Source of the DNA: Chloroflexota bacterium
GTDB lineage: Bacteria > Chloroflexota > Dehalococcoidia > Lucifugimonadales > JADFKI01
DNA length: 64,000 nt
NCBI GenBank assembly: GCA_027623195.1
Contig: JAQBUT010000011.1
Location: 6,432-70,431 of the forward strand
Direction of reading: 5' to 3'
Shown: positions 1,645 through 57,146 of the stretch, piece after piece
How positions within the stretch are numbered: position 1 is the stretch's first letter
Layout: every line of letters begins with the position of its first letter
Notes under the pieces: generated by a model
What the model saw: only the letters and a program-made list of their open reading frames with translations
Databases searched by the model: none
What the model was told of the DNA's origin: nothing
Position numbers and translations under genes: made by a program

Positions 1645-2867
1645 TCGTCCTCTTTGCCTTCGTCCGGCCACAAAGCGTCTAACGTGAAGTTTGATTGCGG
1701 GTAGGTGGATTCCGTTGTGGACATGTGATGATCTGCCTTAATCGGTGGGGTTACATCTTCCAGGAAAGCCTTGGAGGGAAACAGGTTCCCTGCAGACAGG
1801 CCCGGAATGCCTTTGGACTGCACCAGGACTTTGAAGTTACCGAAGCCTTCGGCGTCAGCCAGTTCCTGCATGGCTCGCAAGTTGGAGGTACGTTCGCGCA
1901 GAGGGATGTCCAGCCTTCTCAAGCCCTCCATCATGGCGTCCAAACCAAGCCCCTTAAAGTAATCGCCCTGGTTCAGGTAGGTCACGTTTCGCAGTCCGCT
2001 TGATTCCCCGTCCGACATTAGCTGCGAAAAATCGACGTGAGCCGTGAGGTCTTGTCTCCCGATGCGCTGGTAAGGGCTGGAACCATCTACATGTTTGTAG
2101 TAGGTCTGTAGGGTGCCCATAGTTCTGGCTGGTGAATAGAGCTCTTCCGATAGGTATCCGTAATCGACGGTAATCACGAAGCCTCGATCAAGTGAAGACG
2201 CTATTTCTCGAATCCAGGGTTCCATGTGCAAGTTGACCTCGCCCTCATAACCGTCCGGCCAACCCCAGTCCAGTCTAGCCAGCCGCCTCTCGATGTCGGG
2301 AGTTGAAGGCTCTCCCGTCACCTCAATGATTCCGTCGCGGTCATTGTATGAAACGTAAATCTCTCGAAGGCGGCCCGCCTCCATACGGAAGCGATGTACT
2401 GGAAAGGCGTCCGGTAGCTCGTTCGAGAAAATACATCCCGTAATGCCTCTTAGTGGTACGCCTTCCGTAAGAATGCGTTGGCCTGTGCTGGATTCAACAG
2501 ACGTAGGATACCTGTCCAGAGACAAGTAACAAATGGATGTCTGAAAGGCCAAGGGAAGATTGCTCACATAAGCGGCAAGGTCTCGACTGAGGATGCCTGC
2601 GCCCGCCCCAAGCTCAACGGCGTAAAATGGGCTCGGCCTGTCCAGTAGCTCCCACATGCTATAAAGCTGATTGGCGATGCAGGCCCCAAACGCTGGGTGT
2701 ACGGCGGGGCCTGTGTAGAAGTCGCCAGACTCCCCAAAAGGCGCGGGCGATGAGTAATAACCTCCGTCCGGGTGGTATAGCGCCAGCCGCATGAACTCTT
2801 CGAAGGTGATCTTGCCTTCTTGTCTTATTCTGCGCCTGATCTCTTTCTCTGGTCCGCTTTTACTCAT
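1641..2867 (-). CDS. SAM-dependent methyltransferase, MidA/NDUFAF7 family
   Basis: FMRLALYHPDGGYY, GDFYT, ELGAGAG, FSNELPDAFP, DYG and QDLTAHVDF motifs. Confidence 0.88.
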   Translation of the reverse strand: MSKSGPEKEIRRRIRQEGKITFEEFMRLALYHPDGGYYSSPAPFGESGDFYTGPAVHPAFGACIANQLYSMWELLDRPSPFYAVELGAGAGILSRDLAAYVSNLPLAFQTSICYLSLDRYPTSVESSTGQRILTEGVPLRGITGCIFSNELPDAFPVHRFRMEAGRLREIYVSYNDRDGIIEVTGEPSTPDIERRLARLDWGWPDGYEGEVNLHMEPWIREIASSLDRGFVITVDYGYLSEELYSPARTMGTLQTYYKHVDGSSPYQRIGRQDLTAHVDFSQLMSDGESSGLRNVTYLNQGDYFKGLGLDAMMEGLRRLDIPLRERTSNLRAMQELADAEGFGNFKVLVQSKGIPGLSAGNLFPSKAFLEDVTPPIKADHHMSTTESTYPQSNFTLDALWPDEGKEDD

Positions 2868-33627: not shown

Positions 33628-34461
33628 CTAATGAGCCAATGAAGGCATACCGCAGAACATTTCGTAATCGATAAGTTCTGTAACGGTAGGGTTGTCCCCG
33701 CATAGCGGGCACTCCGGGTTCCTTCGTAGCTTAACGGTGCGGAAGTCCATATCTAGCGCGTCGATGAGGAGCAGTCTTCCCGACAGCGACTTGCCGACTC
33801 CGAGAATCAATTTGACCGTCTCGGTGGCCTGGATAGTGCCGACCATTCCCGGCAGCATACCTAGCACGCCGGCCTCGGCGCAGCTTGGCACCTCACCCGG
33901 AGGCGGGGGCGTTGGGAACAGGCAGCGGTAGCAGCCAGCGCCCGGCAGGTACACAGACGCCATGCCATCAAATAGAAGAATGCTTCCATCCACCAGAGGC
34001 TTGTTGCTCAGGTACGCCGCGTCGTTTACCAGGTAACGAGCAGGGAAGTTGTCGGCCCCGTTAACGATGATGTCGTATTCGGGGATGATGTCGAAGGCGT
34101 TCGCCGAGGTAATGGGCTCTTCGTGTAGGATTACATTTACATCCGGGTTGTAAGCTTTCAGCGTGGCGTAGGCCGATTGAGCCTTAGACTTTCCGATGTC
34201 GTCGTTCTGGTGCAGAATCTGGCGCTGCAGGTTGGTAACGTCAACAGTGTCGAAATCGACAATGCCGATTGTGCCCACCCCTGCCAGTGTGAGATAAATT
34301 GCGATTGGAGAGCCCAAGCCGCCTGCTCCAACCATCAGTACTTTGGCGTCGAGAAGCTTGCGCTGTCCCGCGCTTCCAACCTGAGGCATGATAATGTGCC
34401 GGCTGTACCTTTGAACTTGATAAGGCGTTAGCGCCTGGGTCTGAGTTTCGGTCTGGGTCAT
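33628..34461 (-). CDS. moeB: ThiF/MoeB-family sulfur-carrier adenylyltransferase (no rhodanese domain)
   Basis: RYSRHI, GAGGLGS, DFDTVDVTNLQRQILH, CYRCLFP, SCAEAGVLG, CPLCG. Confidence 0.88.
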   Translation of the reverse strand: MTQTETQTQALTPYQVQRYSRHIIMPQVGSAGQRKLLDAKVLMVGAGGLGSPIAIYLTLAGVGTIGIVDFDTVDVTNLQRQILHQNDDIGKSKAQSAYATLKAYNPDVNVILHEEPITSANAFDIIPEYDIIVNGADNFPARYLVNDAAYLSNKPLVDGSILLFDGMASVYLPGAGCYRCLFPTPPPPGEVPSCAEAGVLGMLPGMVGTIQATETVKLILGVGKSLSGRLLLIDALDMDFRTVKLRRNPECPLCGDNPTVTELIDYEMFCGMPSLAH

Positions 34462-34564: not shown

Positions 34565-34605
34565 AAAAAAACTCCACTAAAAACCGCCTGGGGGTCACAG
34601 TGGAG
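34565..34605 (-). terminator. Attenuator terminator in the moeB leader
   Basis: mRNA CUCCACU...AGUGGAG followed by U7, about 100 nt upstream of the moeB start. Confidence 0.75.
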
Positions 34606-34694
34606 CTTGGTCTGGTCGCTGGCCACTGGGAATGGAATCCCACTAACCAACGTTGTTCAAACCTGGTTGGCCTACTCGAGGCCAACTCCCTGTT

Positions 34695-34748
34695 TTAGAC
34701 CACCTGATATTTGGTGGAGCAACAGAGGCAGCTAGCTTTGCAAATCAT
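34695..34748 (-). CDS. Cysteine-rich leader peptide MICKASCLCCSTKYQVV (putative attenuator of moeB)
   Basis: ATG 34748 to TAA 34695; 4 Cys in 17 codons including CLCC; lies between the promoter and the leader terminator. Confidence 0.7.
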   Translation of the reverse strand: MICKASCLCCSTKYQVV

Positions 34749-34787
34749 GCTTTTCTCGATAAACAGCGTTTGCGCGCGTGCATTAGA

Positions 34788-34816
34788 AGTATAGCATGGC
34801 GGGGTTTTGACTTCAA
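34788..34816 (-). promoter_or_regulatory. Promoter of the leader-moeB transcript
   Basis: TTGAAG-N17-TATACT with extended -10 TG on the minus strand. Confidence 0.65.
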
Positions 34817-45588: not shown

Positions 45589-45659
45589 TCGCGCTGGACG
45601 CAATGGTCTTGACAGGCCTGGCGAATCGCACTTATAGTAAATTCAATTAACAAAAAAAG

Positions 45660-45950
45660 GCTACGAACAGGACTAGTAGGTCTCCAGCGAAGCTCAGAGA
45701 GCCGGGTAAGGTGTGAGCCGGCGCTAAGCGCAGGGACTGAATGGACCTGGGAGCTGCCGCCCGAAGGTCTGCCTCAAGCGGACTGTAGGCGTGGACGGAA
45801 GGGCACCGTTACTGAAGCCCAGGGTATCGAGCCAGAACGATTGGCTCCGTGCCCGAACAAGAGGTCATTCGAGCTGGAAGCGGCTTTGGATGGCGAATTA
45901 GGGTGGCACCACGGTTAGAACCCGTCCCTTGCTAGGGCGGGTTTTTTTAT
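45660..45950 (+). ncRNA. Trp T-box riboswitch with terminator
   Basis: AGAGA and GGTG stem I motifs; specifier GAA-TGG (45742-45744); T-box AATTAGGGTGGCACCACGG (45896-45914); terminator 45919-45950; promoter TTGACA at 45609. Confidence 0.9.
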
Positions 45951-46110: not shown

Positions 46111-47154
46111 ATGCAAACCAGTGAATTGACAAGAGAATCAGAAGCGCCCAGCAAGCGAAGGGTGTTCAGCGGCATACAGCCCTCGGGCGACGTGCAACTG
46201 GGGAACTACTTGGGTGCGATAAAAGGCTGGGTGGAGCGGCAGTCGGAAAAAACTAACTTCTTCTGCCTGGTGGACTTACACGCCATCACGGTGTACCAGG
46301 ACCCGGAGCAACTGCTCCGCCAGACTCGGTCCTTGGCCGCCATTCTTTTCGCAGCCGGGTTGGACCCCGAAAGGAGCACCGTCTTTATCCAGAGCCACGT
46401 CCCGGCCCACGCCGAGGCGTGTTGGATATTGAATTGCGTTACGCCTATGGGCTGGTTGGAACGCATGACCCAGTTCAAAGACAAGTCCGCCAACCAGGAG
46501 CGGGTGTCCGCTGGTCTGCTGGACTACCCCGTGCTGATGGCGGGAGACATACTGCTGTACGACACCCACGAGGTGCCTGTGGGCGAGGACCAGCGTCAGC
46601 ATGTTGAGCTGGCAAGAGACATCGCGGAACGCTTCAATCATTTGTATGGCGAGACTTTCGTGGTGCCTCAGGCTGTAATCGCAGAGGTTGGGGCCAGGGT
46701 CATGGGACTGAACGACCCGACCGCGAAAATGTCCAAGAGCTTTTCGCACATCCGGGGCCACGCTATTGGCATGCTTGACGATCCCAAGGAAATCGAGCGC
46801 TCCTTTAAGCGGGCCGTGACGGACTCCGGCAAAGATATTACCTTTTCAAATGATCCGGAGCGAGCGGGAGTTAACAACCTTCTCGGCATATACAAGGTCA
46901 TCACAGGGCGCAATACGTCCGAGGTAGAAAACGACTTTGCGGATGCCAGGGGTTACGGCGACCTCAAGGCCCGTGTGGCAGAGGTTGTTACCGAAGAGTT
47001 GATGCCCATTCAAAAGCGATATCACGAAATAATGGACGACGTGAGTGAGCTGGACAGGCTTCTGGCCAGAGGCGCGGAGCACGCCGCTTCTGTCTCTACG
47101 CCAAAGATGGACGAGCTAAAGAGGAAAGTGGGTCTCACATTACCCCGAGGCTAG
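46111..47154 (+). CDS. trpS: Tryptophan--tRNA ligase
   Basis: FSGIQPSG, LGNYLGA, DLHAIT, YPVLMAGDIL, VPVGEDQ, KMSKS. Confidence 0.96.
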   Translation: MQTSELTRESEAPSKRRVFSGIQPSGDVQLGNYLGAIKGWVERQSEKTNFFCLVDLHAITVYQDPEQLLRQTRSLAAILFAAGLDPERSTVFIQSHVPAHAEACWILNCVTPMGWLERMTQFKDKSANQERVSAGLLDYPVLMAGDILLYDTHEVPVGEDQRQHVELARDIAERFNHLYGETFVVPQAVIAEVGARVMGLNDPTAKMSKSFSHIRGHAIGMLDDPKEIERSFKRAVTDSGKDITFSNDPERAGVNNLLGIYKVITGRNTSEVENDFADARGYGDLKARVAEVVTEELMPIQKRYHEIMDDVSELDRLLARGAEHAASVSTPKMDELKRKVGLTLPRG

Positions 47155-47200: not shown

Positions 47201-48652
47201 ATGTACCAACCAACGCTAGAACAGGTGCGGAAGCTGGCGGACCAGGGAAACCTGATTCCAATTTTCCGCGAAATCAGCGCGGACCTGGAAACGCCGGTGT
47301 CCGCTTACCTCAAGGTAGCGCGGGCACCTTACTCCTTCCTGCTGGAGAGCGTGGAGGGCGGCGAGCGCATAGCACGGTTCAGCTTCATAGGGACTGAGCC
47401 ACATAAGATCATCAAAACCGGGCCCGGTCAGGAGTACGGCGCCGTGGACCCGCTCATACTAATAGAGAAAGAGCTATCCCAGTACAAGGTCGTGAGCGTG
47501 CCGGAGCTACCGCGCTTCAATGGCGGGGCCGTGGGATACCTTTCCTATGAGACCGTGGGCTATTTCGAGAAGCTGCCATCTCCGAAGAAAGTGGCCACAG
47601 ACGTTCCAGAGTCCATTTTCATGTTTGCCAACACGTTCCTGGTCTTCGATCACCCGCGCCACAAAATGCTGGTGGTTAGCCACCTGGAGTTGGATGGTGA
47701 TATCGACTCCTCTTATGCCGACGCGGTGAATCGCATCGAGGAAATCGTTGGAAGGCTGCAAGGACCGATCAACCTGCCCCATACGGAAGACGCCGTCGTG
47801 ACGCAGAAAGCGGCCATGGACTCCAACGTAACAAAGGACCAGCACGAGGCTATGGTGGAGCGCGTTAAGGAGTACATAGTTGCGGGCGATGTCATACAGA
47901 CCGTCGTCGCCCAGCGGTTGGCAAGGCCCACCACCGCTCACCCATTCCAGATCTATCGAGCCCTCAGGGCCATCAATCCTTCGCCGTACATGTACTACCT
48001 CGAGCTGGACGGATTCCAGATAGTCGGGGCGTCGCCGGAGATGCTGGTGCAGGTGGAAAACGGCGTAGTAGCGACGCACCCAATTGCGGGTACCCGACCT
48101 CGTGGGGCCAACGCCGCTGAGGACGATGCGCTGGAGGCGGAACTGCGCAACGACGAGAAAGAACAGGCAGAGCACATCATGCTGCTAGACCTCGGGCGCA
48201 ATGACATCGGGCGGGTCAGTGAGCCCGGCACAGTAGAAGTCACGCAGCTTATGGACGTGGAGCGTTACTCCCACGTCATGCACCTCGTCTCCCACGTGAC
48301 GGGCAAGCTGCGCAAGGACTACACCAGCTTCGACGCGTTAAGGGCATGCTTCCCTGCCGGCACTGTATCCGGCGCGCCAAAAATACGAGCCATGGAGATT
48401 ATCGCCGAGCTGGAGCCTGACAAGCGCGGACCTTACGCGGGCGCCGTGGGCTACTTCGACTTCTCGGGCAACATGGACACGGCCATTGCCATTCGCACCC
48501 TGGTGGTGAAGGACGGCGTGGCGTACGCCCAGGCCGGAGGGGGCATCGTGTACGACAGCGTGCCGGACACTGAGTACCGCGAAACGTTACACAAGGCCTC
48601 CGCTGTATTACGGGCCATCGACCAGGCTGAGTTAGAAGGCTCGCCGGAATAG
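47201..48652 (+). CDS. trpE: Anthranilate synthase component I
   Basis: FLLESVEGG, NPSPYMY, PIAGTRPRG, EHIMLLDLGRND, FPAGTVSGAPK. Confidence 0.95.
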   Translation: MYQPTLEQVRKLADQGNLIPIFREISADLETPVSAYLKVARAPYSFLLESVEGGERIARFSFIGTEPHKIIKTGPGQEYGAVDPLILIEKELSQYKVVSVPELPRFNGGAVGYLSYETVGYFEKLPSPKKVATDVPESIFMFANTFLVFDHPRHKMLVVSHLELDGDIDSSYADAVNRIEEIVGRLQGPINLPHTEDAVVTQKAAMDSNVTKDQHEAMVERVKEYIVAGDVIQTVVAQRLARPTTAHPFQIYRALRAINPSPYMYYLELDGFQIVGASPEMLVQVENGVVATHPIAGTRPRGANAAEDDALEAELRNDEKEQAEHIMLLDLGRNDIGRVSEPGTVEVTQLMDVERYSHVMHLVSHVTGKLRKDYTSFDALRACFPAGTVSGAPKIRAMEIIAELEPDKRGPYAGAVGYFDFSGNMDTAIAIRTLVVKDGVAYAQAGGGIVYDSVPDTEYRETLHKASAVLRAIDQAELEGSPE

Positions 48653-56642: not shown

Positions 56643-57146
56643 TCAGCGGGCCGGTACGACCTCGCGGATTTCCACGGTTACGTCGCCCGCGTCCAGCGTC
56701 AGTATGGCAATAGTCGCCGGCACCATAAAGGACGCGTAGGCCTGGCCTGGATTTACGAACAGCACGCCGTCTTTGGTCTCGTTTACTGGCACATGCAGGT
56801 GGCCGTAGAGGATGATGTCTACCGGCTCAGGGAAATCTGGGAGCAGCGCCTCGGGCTCGAATTCGGGGCCGCCCCAGGCCGGGTGTATCACCCCGACGCG
56901 CTTGCCCTCCACTTCGATTACCTCCACGTAAGGGATGGCGTTGCGCAGGTTCACAGGGTCCGTGTTGCCATGCACTACCACGGAGCGTTTGGCCTCCTGC
57001 TTGAAGCCTTCGACCACGTCCATTCGGACGAAGTCCCCGCAGTGGACGGCGATATCAGCCTCAGCGACGGCCTGTCGAATATCCGGATGCACTTCGTCCC
57101 ATTTGTGGAAGTGGGTATCGGAGATGACTACTATTTTAGTGCTCAT
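56643..57146 (-). CDS. YfcE-family metallophosphoesterase
   Basis: ISDTH, HCGD, GNTD, GHLH, NPG. Confidence 0.88.
   Translation of the reverse strand: MSTKIVVISDTHFHKWDEVHPDIRQAVAEADIAVHCGDFVRMDVVEGFKQEAKRSVVVHGNTDPVNLRNAIPYVEVIEVEGKRVGVIHPAWGGPEFEPEALLPDFPEPVDIILYGHLHVPVNETKDGVLFVNPGQAYASFMVPATIAILTLDAGDVTVEIREVVPAR

Follow-up and report, generated by a model that had tools for sequence, protein, structure and literature searches.

A Predicted Cysteine-Responsive Leader-Peptide Attenuator Upstream of moeB in the Chloroflexota Order Lucifugimonadales

The gene moeB, which encodes an E1-like enzyme of the MoeB/ThiF family, is preceded in a Chloroflexota bacterium (class Dehalococcoidia, order Lucifugimonadales) by a leader that, judging from its sequence and conservation, is most probably a ribosome-mediated leader-peptide transcription attenuator. 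The leader carries a short upstream open reading frame (uORF) with several cysteine codons, through which it would read the supply of Cys-tRNA(Cys). It lies on the minus strand, at positions 34816 to 34565, of a stretch of 64,000 nucleotides (GenBank assembly GCA_027623195.1, contig JAQBUT010000011.1, positions 6,432 to 70,431 of the forward strand), and this whole stretch is called the window below. The original prediction, made from the letters of the window alone, had assigned trp/his-type logic to this leader, with cysteine as the sensed amino acid. This assignment is also the best-supported reading in our analysis, given the conserved in-frame Cys codons, the covarying terminator, and a predicted pairing at the uORF stop codon that would compete for the 5′ arm of the terminator.

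Anatomy of the moeB Leader

The promoter, the uORF, helix 1:2, and the terminator followed by moeB that the original prediction had described were all found at their predicted positions. The promoter (34816-34788) combines a -35 element TTGAAG (34816-34811), a 17-nt spacer, and an extended -10 element TGnTATACT (34796-34788; hexamer TATACT, 34793-34788). It is listed by a consensus scan, and the same -35/-10 pair is kept 5′ of moeB in relatives. The uORF (34748-34695) begins with an ATG at 34748, 39 nt past the -10 hexamer, and runs for 17 codons to a TAA at 34697-34695, with Cys at codons 3, 7, 9, and 10. Its Shine-Dalgarno match is weak or absent. A further ORF of 12 codons (34783-34745, minus strand) starts 4 nt past the -10 element, and its UGA overlaps the ATG of the Cys ORF (AUGA). 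This ORF is not kept in the other leaders of the genus.

Four segments account for the alternative structures. Segment 1 (34727-34713) spans the codons Leu8-Cys9-Cys10-Ser11-Thr12 and forms the 5′ strand of helix 1:2. Segment 2 (34704-34686) reaches from the final codons of the uORF through its stop codon to 9 nt past it. In the fold and in a duplex search, it serves both as the 3′ strand of helix 1:2 and as the 5′ strand of the antiterminator. Helix 1:2, with its CCACC/GGUGG inner stem and its outer stem, is part of the minimum-free-energy (MFE) fold. Two hairpins follow. H2 (34686-34666) has an 8-bp stem, lies inside the antiterminator, and is kept with changes in relatives, and the long hairpin H3 (34663-34609) has a base, GGUUUG/CAGACC, that is conserved in the genus and an interior that is variable. 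Segment 3 (34605-34590) is the 5′ arm of the terminator, with a lower and an upper stem (lower arm, 34605-34599). Segment 4 (34588-34565), with which it covaries, consists of the 3′ arm (34588-34572; lower arm, 34578-34572) and a run of seven U (34571-34565).

The terminator ends about 100 nt 5′ of the moeB ribosome-binding site. Sequence and genus comparison mark a GCAUCUAA box (34498-34491) and the strong GGAGGA Shine-Dalgarno sequence of moeB (34476-34471) in the region 34498-34471. Of 86 moeB upstream regions, 21 have a GCAUCUAA-like box in the corresponding place, 3′ of the leader terminator and ahead of the moeB Shine-Dalgarno sequence; some of these 21 have no detected terminator.

The 236-nt leader folds at -89.3 kcal/mol, compared with -64.4 ± 4.7 kcal/mol for 200 dinucleotide shuffles (z = -5.35), and none of the 200 shuffles was as stable. 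Its MFE fold holds helix 1:2, the hairpins 34686-34666 and 34663-34609, and the terminator. The original prediction had named a known riboswitch in Rfam as an explanation that would replace attenuation; Rfam 15 placed no family on the leader even at E ≤ 10. Across the whole 64-kb window, Rfam recognized just one family, a T-box (45654-45932).

Conservation Across the Order and Within the Genus

The leader element is specific to moeB and occurs across the order rather than in a single genus, with homologous leaders ahead of moeB in many of its families. Of 201 genomes of the order, 194 yielded a MoeB orthologue, and 60 moeB upstream regions were sampled from its other genera. A strict scan for a hairpin followed by a T-run was positive in 27 of these 60 regions, of which 21 were judged homologous leaders of the uORF type, 2 had the homologous terminator just 65-69 nt past the promoter, and 4 were unrelated. 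Another 8 homologous leaders were recognized by eye. An alignment of orthologous moeB upstream regions, which the original prediction had proposed, showed Cys codons conserved across divergent leaders and a terminator with compensatory changes. The terminator sequence is recognizably shared throughout the leaders of the order, and all that is conserved of the uORF is its core, Cys-x-Cys(-Thr), with Cys encoded by both UGU and UGC and a middle codon that varies.

The abundance of Cys codons was measured in all 25 leaders with a recognizable promoter and terminator, which were picked blind to Cys. At least two Cys codons within a 5-codon ORF window occurred in 17 of the 25 leaders, compared with 3.82 ± 1.82 in 300 dinucleotide shuffles (maximum 9; 0/300 reached 17). 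Among the 20 amino acids, Cys alone stands out. The next were Thr (14 vs 9.6) and Lys (7 vs 4.0), each of which was reached by 12/300 shuffles. The set holds close kin, namely four leaders of one genus and two other pairs, and the large Cys excess survives de-duplication.

Base pairing is conserved as well. In 24 aligned leaders, 80.5% of terminator cells were paired, compared with 36-53% when slid; both partners had changed in 8 of the 13 pairs. The terminator covariation score was 0.264 vs 0.197, a value reached by 2/500 shuffles. In the same 24 leaders, the antiterminator was assessed as two boxes paired with the terminator loop and the upper 5′ arm, giving 64.6% paired cells vs 26-49% slid and 21 cells changed on both sides vs 12.2 (2/500 shuffles). 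The covariation of the antiterminator is modest, weaker than that of the terminator. Between the boxes, the middle domain differs from family to family in both length and sequence.

A covariance model of the region from box to terminator, R1, was searched with strict filters and matched 21 of 151 genomes of the order, once in each. Nineteen of the 20 non-self matches lie directly 5′ of moeB, and the twentieth is on a small contig in a genome without a listed moeB match. Under strict filters, R1 had no match in 150 other genomes sampled from the class, mostly of other orders, a result that is not proof of absence.

At closer range, the leader occurs once in the window's own genome. BLAST against 61 related genomes gave matches in just two, the remaining genomes of the genus, with identities of 72% and 68%. 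Exact-pattern scans returned 2 genome-collection records and 4 metagenome records, 2 of the latter being chance hits, for a net gain of one new leader. The four distinct leaders of the genus thus available are 68-72% identical in DNA, and their uORF is free of indels although the flanks have them. All four keep the ATG, the TAA, and the tandem Cys9-Cys10; Cys3 and Cys7 are missing from one or two. The other codon differences in the uORF are almost all non-synonymous. The C-terminal residues are identical within the genus, and their codons are nucleotide-invariant and form helix 1:2. As far as sequence comparison can tell, this pattern of change is that of a regulatory leader peptide rather than of a functional peptide.

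The enzyme itself is well conserved; within the family, MoeB sequences are 84-88% identical. In one other genus of this family, an 88%-identical moeB is preceded by the same promoter, a different uORF of 13 codons with 5 Cys, and a homologous terminator. The family's largest genus (21 genomes, loci L014-L034) keeps the promoter and has a short leader without a Cys ORF or terminator, which suggests loss or replacement of the attenuator in this genus. A CAGCGCGAA-like box is present in several of these short leaders. The same genus gave no cysH match (0/22 genomes).

Antiterminator Pairing and Ribosome Geometry

The original prediction had paired 34693-34682 with 34610-34597 as the antiterminator. 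This 2:3 pairing exists and is the lower part of a longer duplex, whose upper part had been missed: 34704-34698 pairs with the upper 5′ arm of the terminator at 34596-34590. The duplex of segment 2 with the 5′ arm and loop of the terminator was the best found in the window's leader, at -21.3 kcal/mol. Segments 1 and 3 are alike, as are segments 2 and 4, and segment 2 can therefore take either partner. The local hairpin at 34686-34666, which had been regarded as a competing structure that complicates the model, is present and does not compete. In the folds of the two closest relatives, it is enclosed together with the hairpin 34663-34609 inside the antiterminator helix, and in these two relatives the antiterminator that encloses both middle hairpins is the MFE structure.

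The position of the uORF relative to these helices would suit control by a ribosome. The start of segment 2 in the window lies 16 nt past the first nucleotide of the Cys10 codon and precedes the end of the stop codon by 11 nt. Because a ribosome covers about +12 nt in the footprint model, one stalled on Cys10 would hide segment 1 and leave segment 2 free. In the same model, a ribosome with Cys9 or Cys10 in its A site would cover segment 1, and one positioned at the stop codon would mask segment 2. The geometry was then compared among 26 homologous leaders, in all of which an ORF was found (26/26); these uORFs had been picked by rule, on Cys content. In 24 of the 26 leaders, the sequence that pairs best with the terminator 5′ arm and loop starts between -35 and +20 nt from the end of the stop codon (expected 16.6, P = 4e-4). 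The best duplex starts 13-31 nt 3′ of the last clustered Cys codon in 22 of the 26.

Folding under ribosome constraints, a check named in the original prediction, gave mixed results for the predicted switch. Transcripts truncated before the terminator 3′ arm, which represent the leader before that arm is transcribed, show it in the window's leader; full-length MFE folds do not. In the truncated folds, 7 of the 21 bases of the 5′ arm and loop were paired upstream with no ribosome, compared with 15/21 with a ribosome on Cys10 and 3/21 with a ribosome on the stop codon.

A Second Cysteine Leader Upstream of cysH

The original prediction had suggested a search of the genome for further Cys leaders ahead of sulfur genes. 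This search yielded one convincing case, upstream of cysH, and one probable chance ORF, at the start of a CysK/M-like gene. Genome-wide scans for Cys-rich short ORFs were noisy, with 193, 709, and 152 candidates, and only the moeB and cysH candidates combined a promoter, a terminator, and a sulfur gene. Candidates on contigs C3, C44, C47, C50, and C11 were dropped because they were gene ends or lay 5′ of a promoter. The CysK/M-like gene (genome G000, contig C24, locus L112, ~2415-2470, minus strand) has a short leader, and its 10-codon Cys-His-Cys ORF overlaps the likely TTG start in another frame.

The identity of cysH rests on a PAPS_reduct match (E = 8.6e-47) and on APS/PAPS reductase models. 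Its leader (G000 contig C56, locus L049, 12996-13195, minus strand) has a near-consensus promoter, a 33-codon ORF with the motif C-x-C-C-C, and a strong terminator. A sister genome keeps the frame and the Cys cluster along with the promoter and terminator. A second frame in this leader (L-C-C-P-C) is not kept in the sister genome and was rejected. No Rfam family scored above threshold on the cysH leader.

The gene was found in 71 of the 201 genomes of the order, and the 31 best loci (related loci including L051 and L117-L145) were used for testing. In a fixed 230-nt window chosen blind to Cys, at least two Cys within 5 ORF codons were present in 25 of the 31 regions, compared with 8.55 ± 2.42 in shuffled sequences (0/200 reached 25), and at least three Cys in a 5-codon ORF window occurred in 20/31. 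A terminator-like hairpin with a T-run was found in 30 of the 31 regions, in 29 of them about 45-105 nt before the start; L138 has one far upstream only, and L122 has none. ATG-started Cys-x-Cys uORFs occur in 24/31, and many of the leader peptides end in Val-Gln-Val/Ala/Glu. The cysH leader is not homologous to the moeB leader and is an independent case. Since Cys leaders stand before both genes, Cys-codon attenuation appears to be a general device in this order, and moeB would share a regulon with cysH. The latter gene is present in 12 of the 20 genomes with an R1 match.

Proposed Mechanism

The anatomy, its conservation, the excess of Cys codons, the covariation of the terminator, and the exclusive link to moeB are observed; we infer that the leader ORF is translated, that ribosomes stall on its Cys codons, and that the two alternative structures act as a switch. 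Transcription would start just past 34788, and the 17-codon ORF would be translated. When Cys-tRNA is plentiful, the ribosome would reach the TAA at 34697-34695 and cover segment 2 (34704-34686); alternatively, once the ribosome has been released, segment 2 would re-pair with segment 1. Segments 3 and 4 would then form the terminator, and RNA polymerase would stop at the U-run (34571-34565). When Cys-tRNA is scarce, the ribosome would stall with Cys9 or Cys10 in its A site and cover segment 1, with its edge some 3-4 nt away from segment 2. Segment 2, left free, could pair with segment 3, enclosing H2 and H3, so that no terminator would form and transcription would read through into moeB.

Evaluation of Alternative Explanations

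Several observations weigh against this mechanism. The leaders compared are related sequences, and the shuffle tests therefore overstate their independence. Changes in the antiterminator are mostly one-sided (G-U/A-U/G-C), and the MAFFT alignment there is imperfect. Only one Cys codon was present in 8 of the 26 ORFs chosen by rule. The leader ORFs have no clear Shine-Dalgarno sequence, and moeB has a strong GGAGG. In some distant leaders, the ORF starts 6-9 nt past the -10 element and is thus possibly leaderless. In L056 and L060, two genomes of one genus, a homologous terminator lies 65-69 nt past the conserved promoter, too close for a uORF to fit in between. A ligand or protein site is another possible reading of the conserved boxes (GCGCGAGG and the UUGCGU loop). 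With respect to folding, the window's full-length MFE fold keeps the terminator despite the mask of a stalled ribosome, and truncated folds of the 26 leaders gave more upstream pairing on stalling than on the stop codon in 12, the reverse in 7, and equality in 7. Duplex energies surpass those of mononucleotide shuffles by a modest margin (median z = -0.87). Taken together, thermodynamic modeling supports a predicted switch in the window's leader, and it does not do so uniformly in the others.

Some of these features would fit a leader that works without translation, that is, a riboswitch or a protein- or tRNA-binding RNA whose conserved boxes are the sensor that selects antiterminator or terminator and in which the short ORF is incidental. 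We consider this unlikely. The strongly structured fold (z = -5.35), the primary-sequence conservation of GCGCGAGG and of UUGCGU in the terminator loop across families, the unclear Shine-Dalgarno sequences, and the two leaders with a terminator and no ORF room all agree with such a sensor RNA. However, the domain between the boxes is highly variable in length and sequence, unlike an aptamer core, and the Rfam search, at its permissive threshold, argues against a riboswitch. The window's genus lacks box 1 altogether, yet it keeps the ORF and its Cys codons. Moreover, in-frame Cys enrichment (17/25 vs 3.8) with synonymous codon variation is unexpected for a non-coding element, and the unrelated cysH leader has the same Cys-codon feature.

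It is very unlikely that the ORF is a chance one before an ordinary leader terminator, or before a small RNA that ends at the U-tract, with no amino-acid sensing. Chance Cys ORFs are common in this genome: among 29,359 short ORFs in intergenic regions, 152 contain 3 or more Cys within a stretch of 6 codons. The conserved frame and Cys codons, the moeB and cysH shuffle tests, the exclusive placement before moeB, and where the stop codon falls with respect to the antiterminator strand all speak against this explanation. An extremely improbable reading is that the short ORF encodes a functional peptide, either a substrate of the ThiF-like enzyme or a Cys-rich metal-binding or RiPP precursor, with the terminator setting the ratio of peptide to enzyme. 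In microcin C synthesis, the peptide MccA is adenylated by MccB, and the order of small ORF, partial terminator, and ThiF-family gene is reminiscent of mccA-mccB. The identical C-terminal residues within the genus would fit a functional peptide; however, their codons are nucleotide-invariant and part of helix 1:2, and beyond the genus the peptides share Cys-x-Cys only, range from 13 to more than 50 residues, and have unrelated C-termini. The 277-aa MoeB-type enzyme, with its ThiF domain at residues 19-252, has no extra peptide-binding domain, and it is 84-88% identical in genomes of genus g4 that lack the ORF. The microcin-C-like reading was rejected on these grounds. Attenuation by a ribosome that reads Cys codons remains the explanation that we prefer.

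Relation to Known Attenuators

Leader-peptide attenuation is textbook knowledge for Trp, His, Leu, Thr, Ile/Val, and Phe, in the trp, his, leu, thr, ilv, and pheA operons of enterobacteria. The moeB leader shares with these classical attenuators a promoter-proximal short ORF rich in the sensed codon, four segments with predicted helices 1:2, 2:3, and 3:4, a terminator with a U-tract, and a stop codon placed to mask segment 2. It differs from them in that it would sense cysteine and govern an E1-like activator of sulfur carriers rather than a whole biosynthetic operon. It also differs in the roughly 80 nt of independent hairpins in the 2:3 loop, in its weak or absent Shine-Dalgarno sequence, and in its Dehalococcoidia host. 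The classical mechanism is summarized in the introduction of a preprint on mycobacteria (Canestrari et al. 2020, bioRxiv 10.1101/834739).

According to the text of that preprint, leaderless polycysteine ORFs of mycobacteria act as translational attenuators, and uORF-mediated cysteine attenuation was, in its authors' words, previously undescribed. The mycobacterial and moeB cases are alike in that Cys-codon uORFs would make cysteine-related genes responsive to cysteine, within a multi-locus regulon in which each locus is controlled in cis. The mycobacterial ORFs, as the same preprint describes them, are leaderless; their Cys tract base-pairs with the Shine-Dalgarno sequence of the gene that follows, and transcription termination was not seen with a reporter. 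In contrast, the moeB leader has an intrinsic terminator, its ORF in the window lies 39 nt past the -10 element and is not leaderless, and its Cys codons are paired, in the MFE fold, with the segment located at the stop codon of the uORF. The main text of the preprint (bioRxiv 10.1101/834739) does not mention moeB, moeZ, cysO, cysH, or ThiF; its tables could list related genes.

Two other cysteine systems have been predicted. The uORFC-8-2 motif before cysS in Rhodobacterales is described as a predicted terminator-type attenuator that reads Cys-tRNA (Brewer et al. 2021, PMC8632094). In the account of it given there, it resembles the moeB leader in having a conserved AUG uORF with two tandem Cys codons in a stem, followed by a terminator with a U-run. 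It differs in that it belongs to alpha-proteobacteria and precedes the gene for cysteinyl-tRNA synthetase; no sequence relation to the moeB leader was seen in the motif as presented in PMC8632094, and it is likewise a prediction only. Cys leader peptides were also predicted in actinobacteria, where the passages concerned report no conserved terminator hairpins and suggest Rho dependence (Seliverstov et al. 2005, PMC1262725). As portrayed in PMC1262725, those leaders are likewise short ORFs that precede genes of cysteine synthesis and carry Cys codons in runs close to the stop codon. Unlike them, the moeB leader carries a covarying intrinsic terminator.

Full-text literature searches for leader-peptide attenuation in Chloroflexota, for cysteine attenuators in Dehalococcoidia, and for moeB leader peptides found nothing relevant. 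A cysH-centered literature search found nothing beyond the mycobacterial, actinobacterial, and Rhodobacterales papers on Cys leaders. The kind of element is therefore already known; the lineage, the target moeB, and the paired family of cysH leaders are new as far as these searches reach. The cysteine precedents found comprise the translational mycobacterial cases and one predicted terminator-type case before cysS, to which a well-conserved terminator-type family in Chloroflexota is now added.

The moeB Gene and Its Metabolic Context

The gene downstream of the leader (33628-34461, minus strand) encodes an E1-like adenylyltransferase of the moeB/thiF family with 277 aa and without a rhodanese domain, as assigned with Pfam and NCBIfam. 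Pfam PF00899 (ThiF) covers residues 19-252 (E = 8.7e-80). NCBIfam NF004281 (MoeB subfamily) scored 278.9 bits, with a cut-off of 266, and the best NCBIfam names are MoeB/MoeZ. A terminator scan placed an intrinsic terminator with a 9-bp GC-rich stem and a U6 run 3′ of moeB (33600-33573, minus strand). With this strong terminator of its own, moeB is monocistronic, and the leader would control a single gene.

The genome is 87% complete, so that a gene not found in it is not thereby absent. Within this limit, moeB is the sole ThiF-family gene found. Four genes of the ThiS/MoaD family were found, one beside moaE, one beside thiG and thiE, one beside a gene for a molybdopterin-binding protein, and one as the last gene of an operon on contig C11 (G000, locus L036, 1495-3238, minus strand). 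Besides a ThiS/SAMP-like carrier, this operon encodes a NIL-domain protein and a threonine-synthase-like enzyme whose N-terminus resembles a Zn ribbon. The carrier ends in Gly-Gly-Phe and would therefore need trimming; two JAB-domain genes are present elsewhere in the genome. The operon is a candidate for a route of the MetM/MetO or the CysO type. The L036 leader (C11 ~46640-46830) has a consensus promoter and then a 6-codon ORF that ends in a short GC hairpin and a U-run. The CysK/M-like gene scored 300.8 bits, below the model cut-off of 344, and a search of the 87%-complete genome turned up no serine acetyltransferase.

It is plausible that MoeB serves the synthesis of sulfur amino acids and not that of the molybdenum cofactor (Moco) alone. 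As the sole activator found for the four ThiS/MoaD-type carriers, and if induced together with cysH on cysteine shortage, it would likely act on the supply side via protein thiocarboxylates, besides its part in Moco and thiamin. A wider and more tentative proposal is that the order runs a Cys-attenuation regulon of at least cysH and moeB, each with its own leader and terminator, in which a single E1-like enzyme could be the committed, cysteine-controlled step of a thiocarboxylate route (CysO/CysM-like or MetO/MetM-like). We regard this as possible and do not lean toward it with confidence.

Two further leaders were seen outside these sulfur genes. The T-box of the window (45654-45932, plus strand; 105.5 bits) has the specifier UGG (Trp) and is an ordinary Trp T-box. 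It precedes a gene for a class I W/Y tRNA synthetase and one for anthranilate synthase component I (46111-47154 and 47201-48652). On contig C3 of G000 (~56700-56880, plus strand; locus L039), a consensus promoter, TTGACA-N17-TAATAT, is followed directly by a GC hairpin and a U7 run before a gene for 146 aa without a Pfam match, which is divergent from a JAB-domain gene. The L039 hairpin may be another attenuator.

Implications

As targets of cysteine attenuation, cysH is the expected gene and moeB the unexpected one. The leader suggests a link between the supply of cysteine and the activation of ThiS/MoaD-type carriers, and this fits the serine acetyltransferase not found, the CysK/M-like gene, and the operon of threonine-synthase-like enzyme, NIL-domain protein, and carrier. 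The moeB leader offers regulatory evidence on the metabolism of organisms that are known mostly from metagenome bins. If the regulon proposal is true, the Cys leader would serve as a genomic tag for still-unknown genes of cysteine supply in uncultured lineages.

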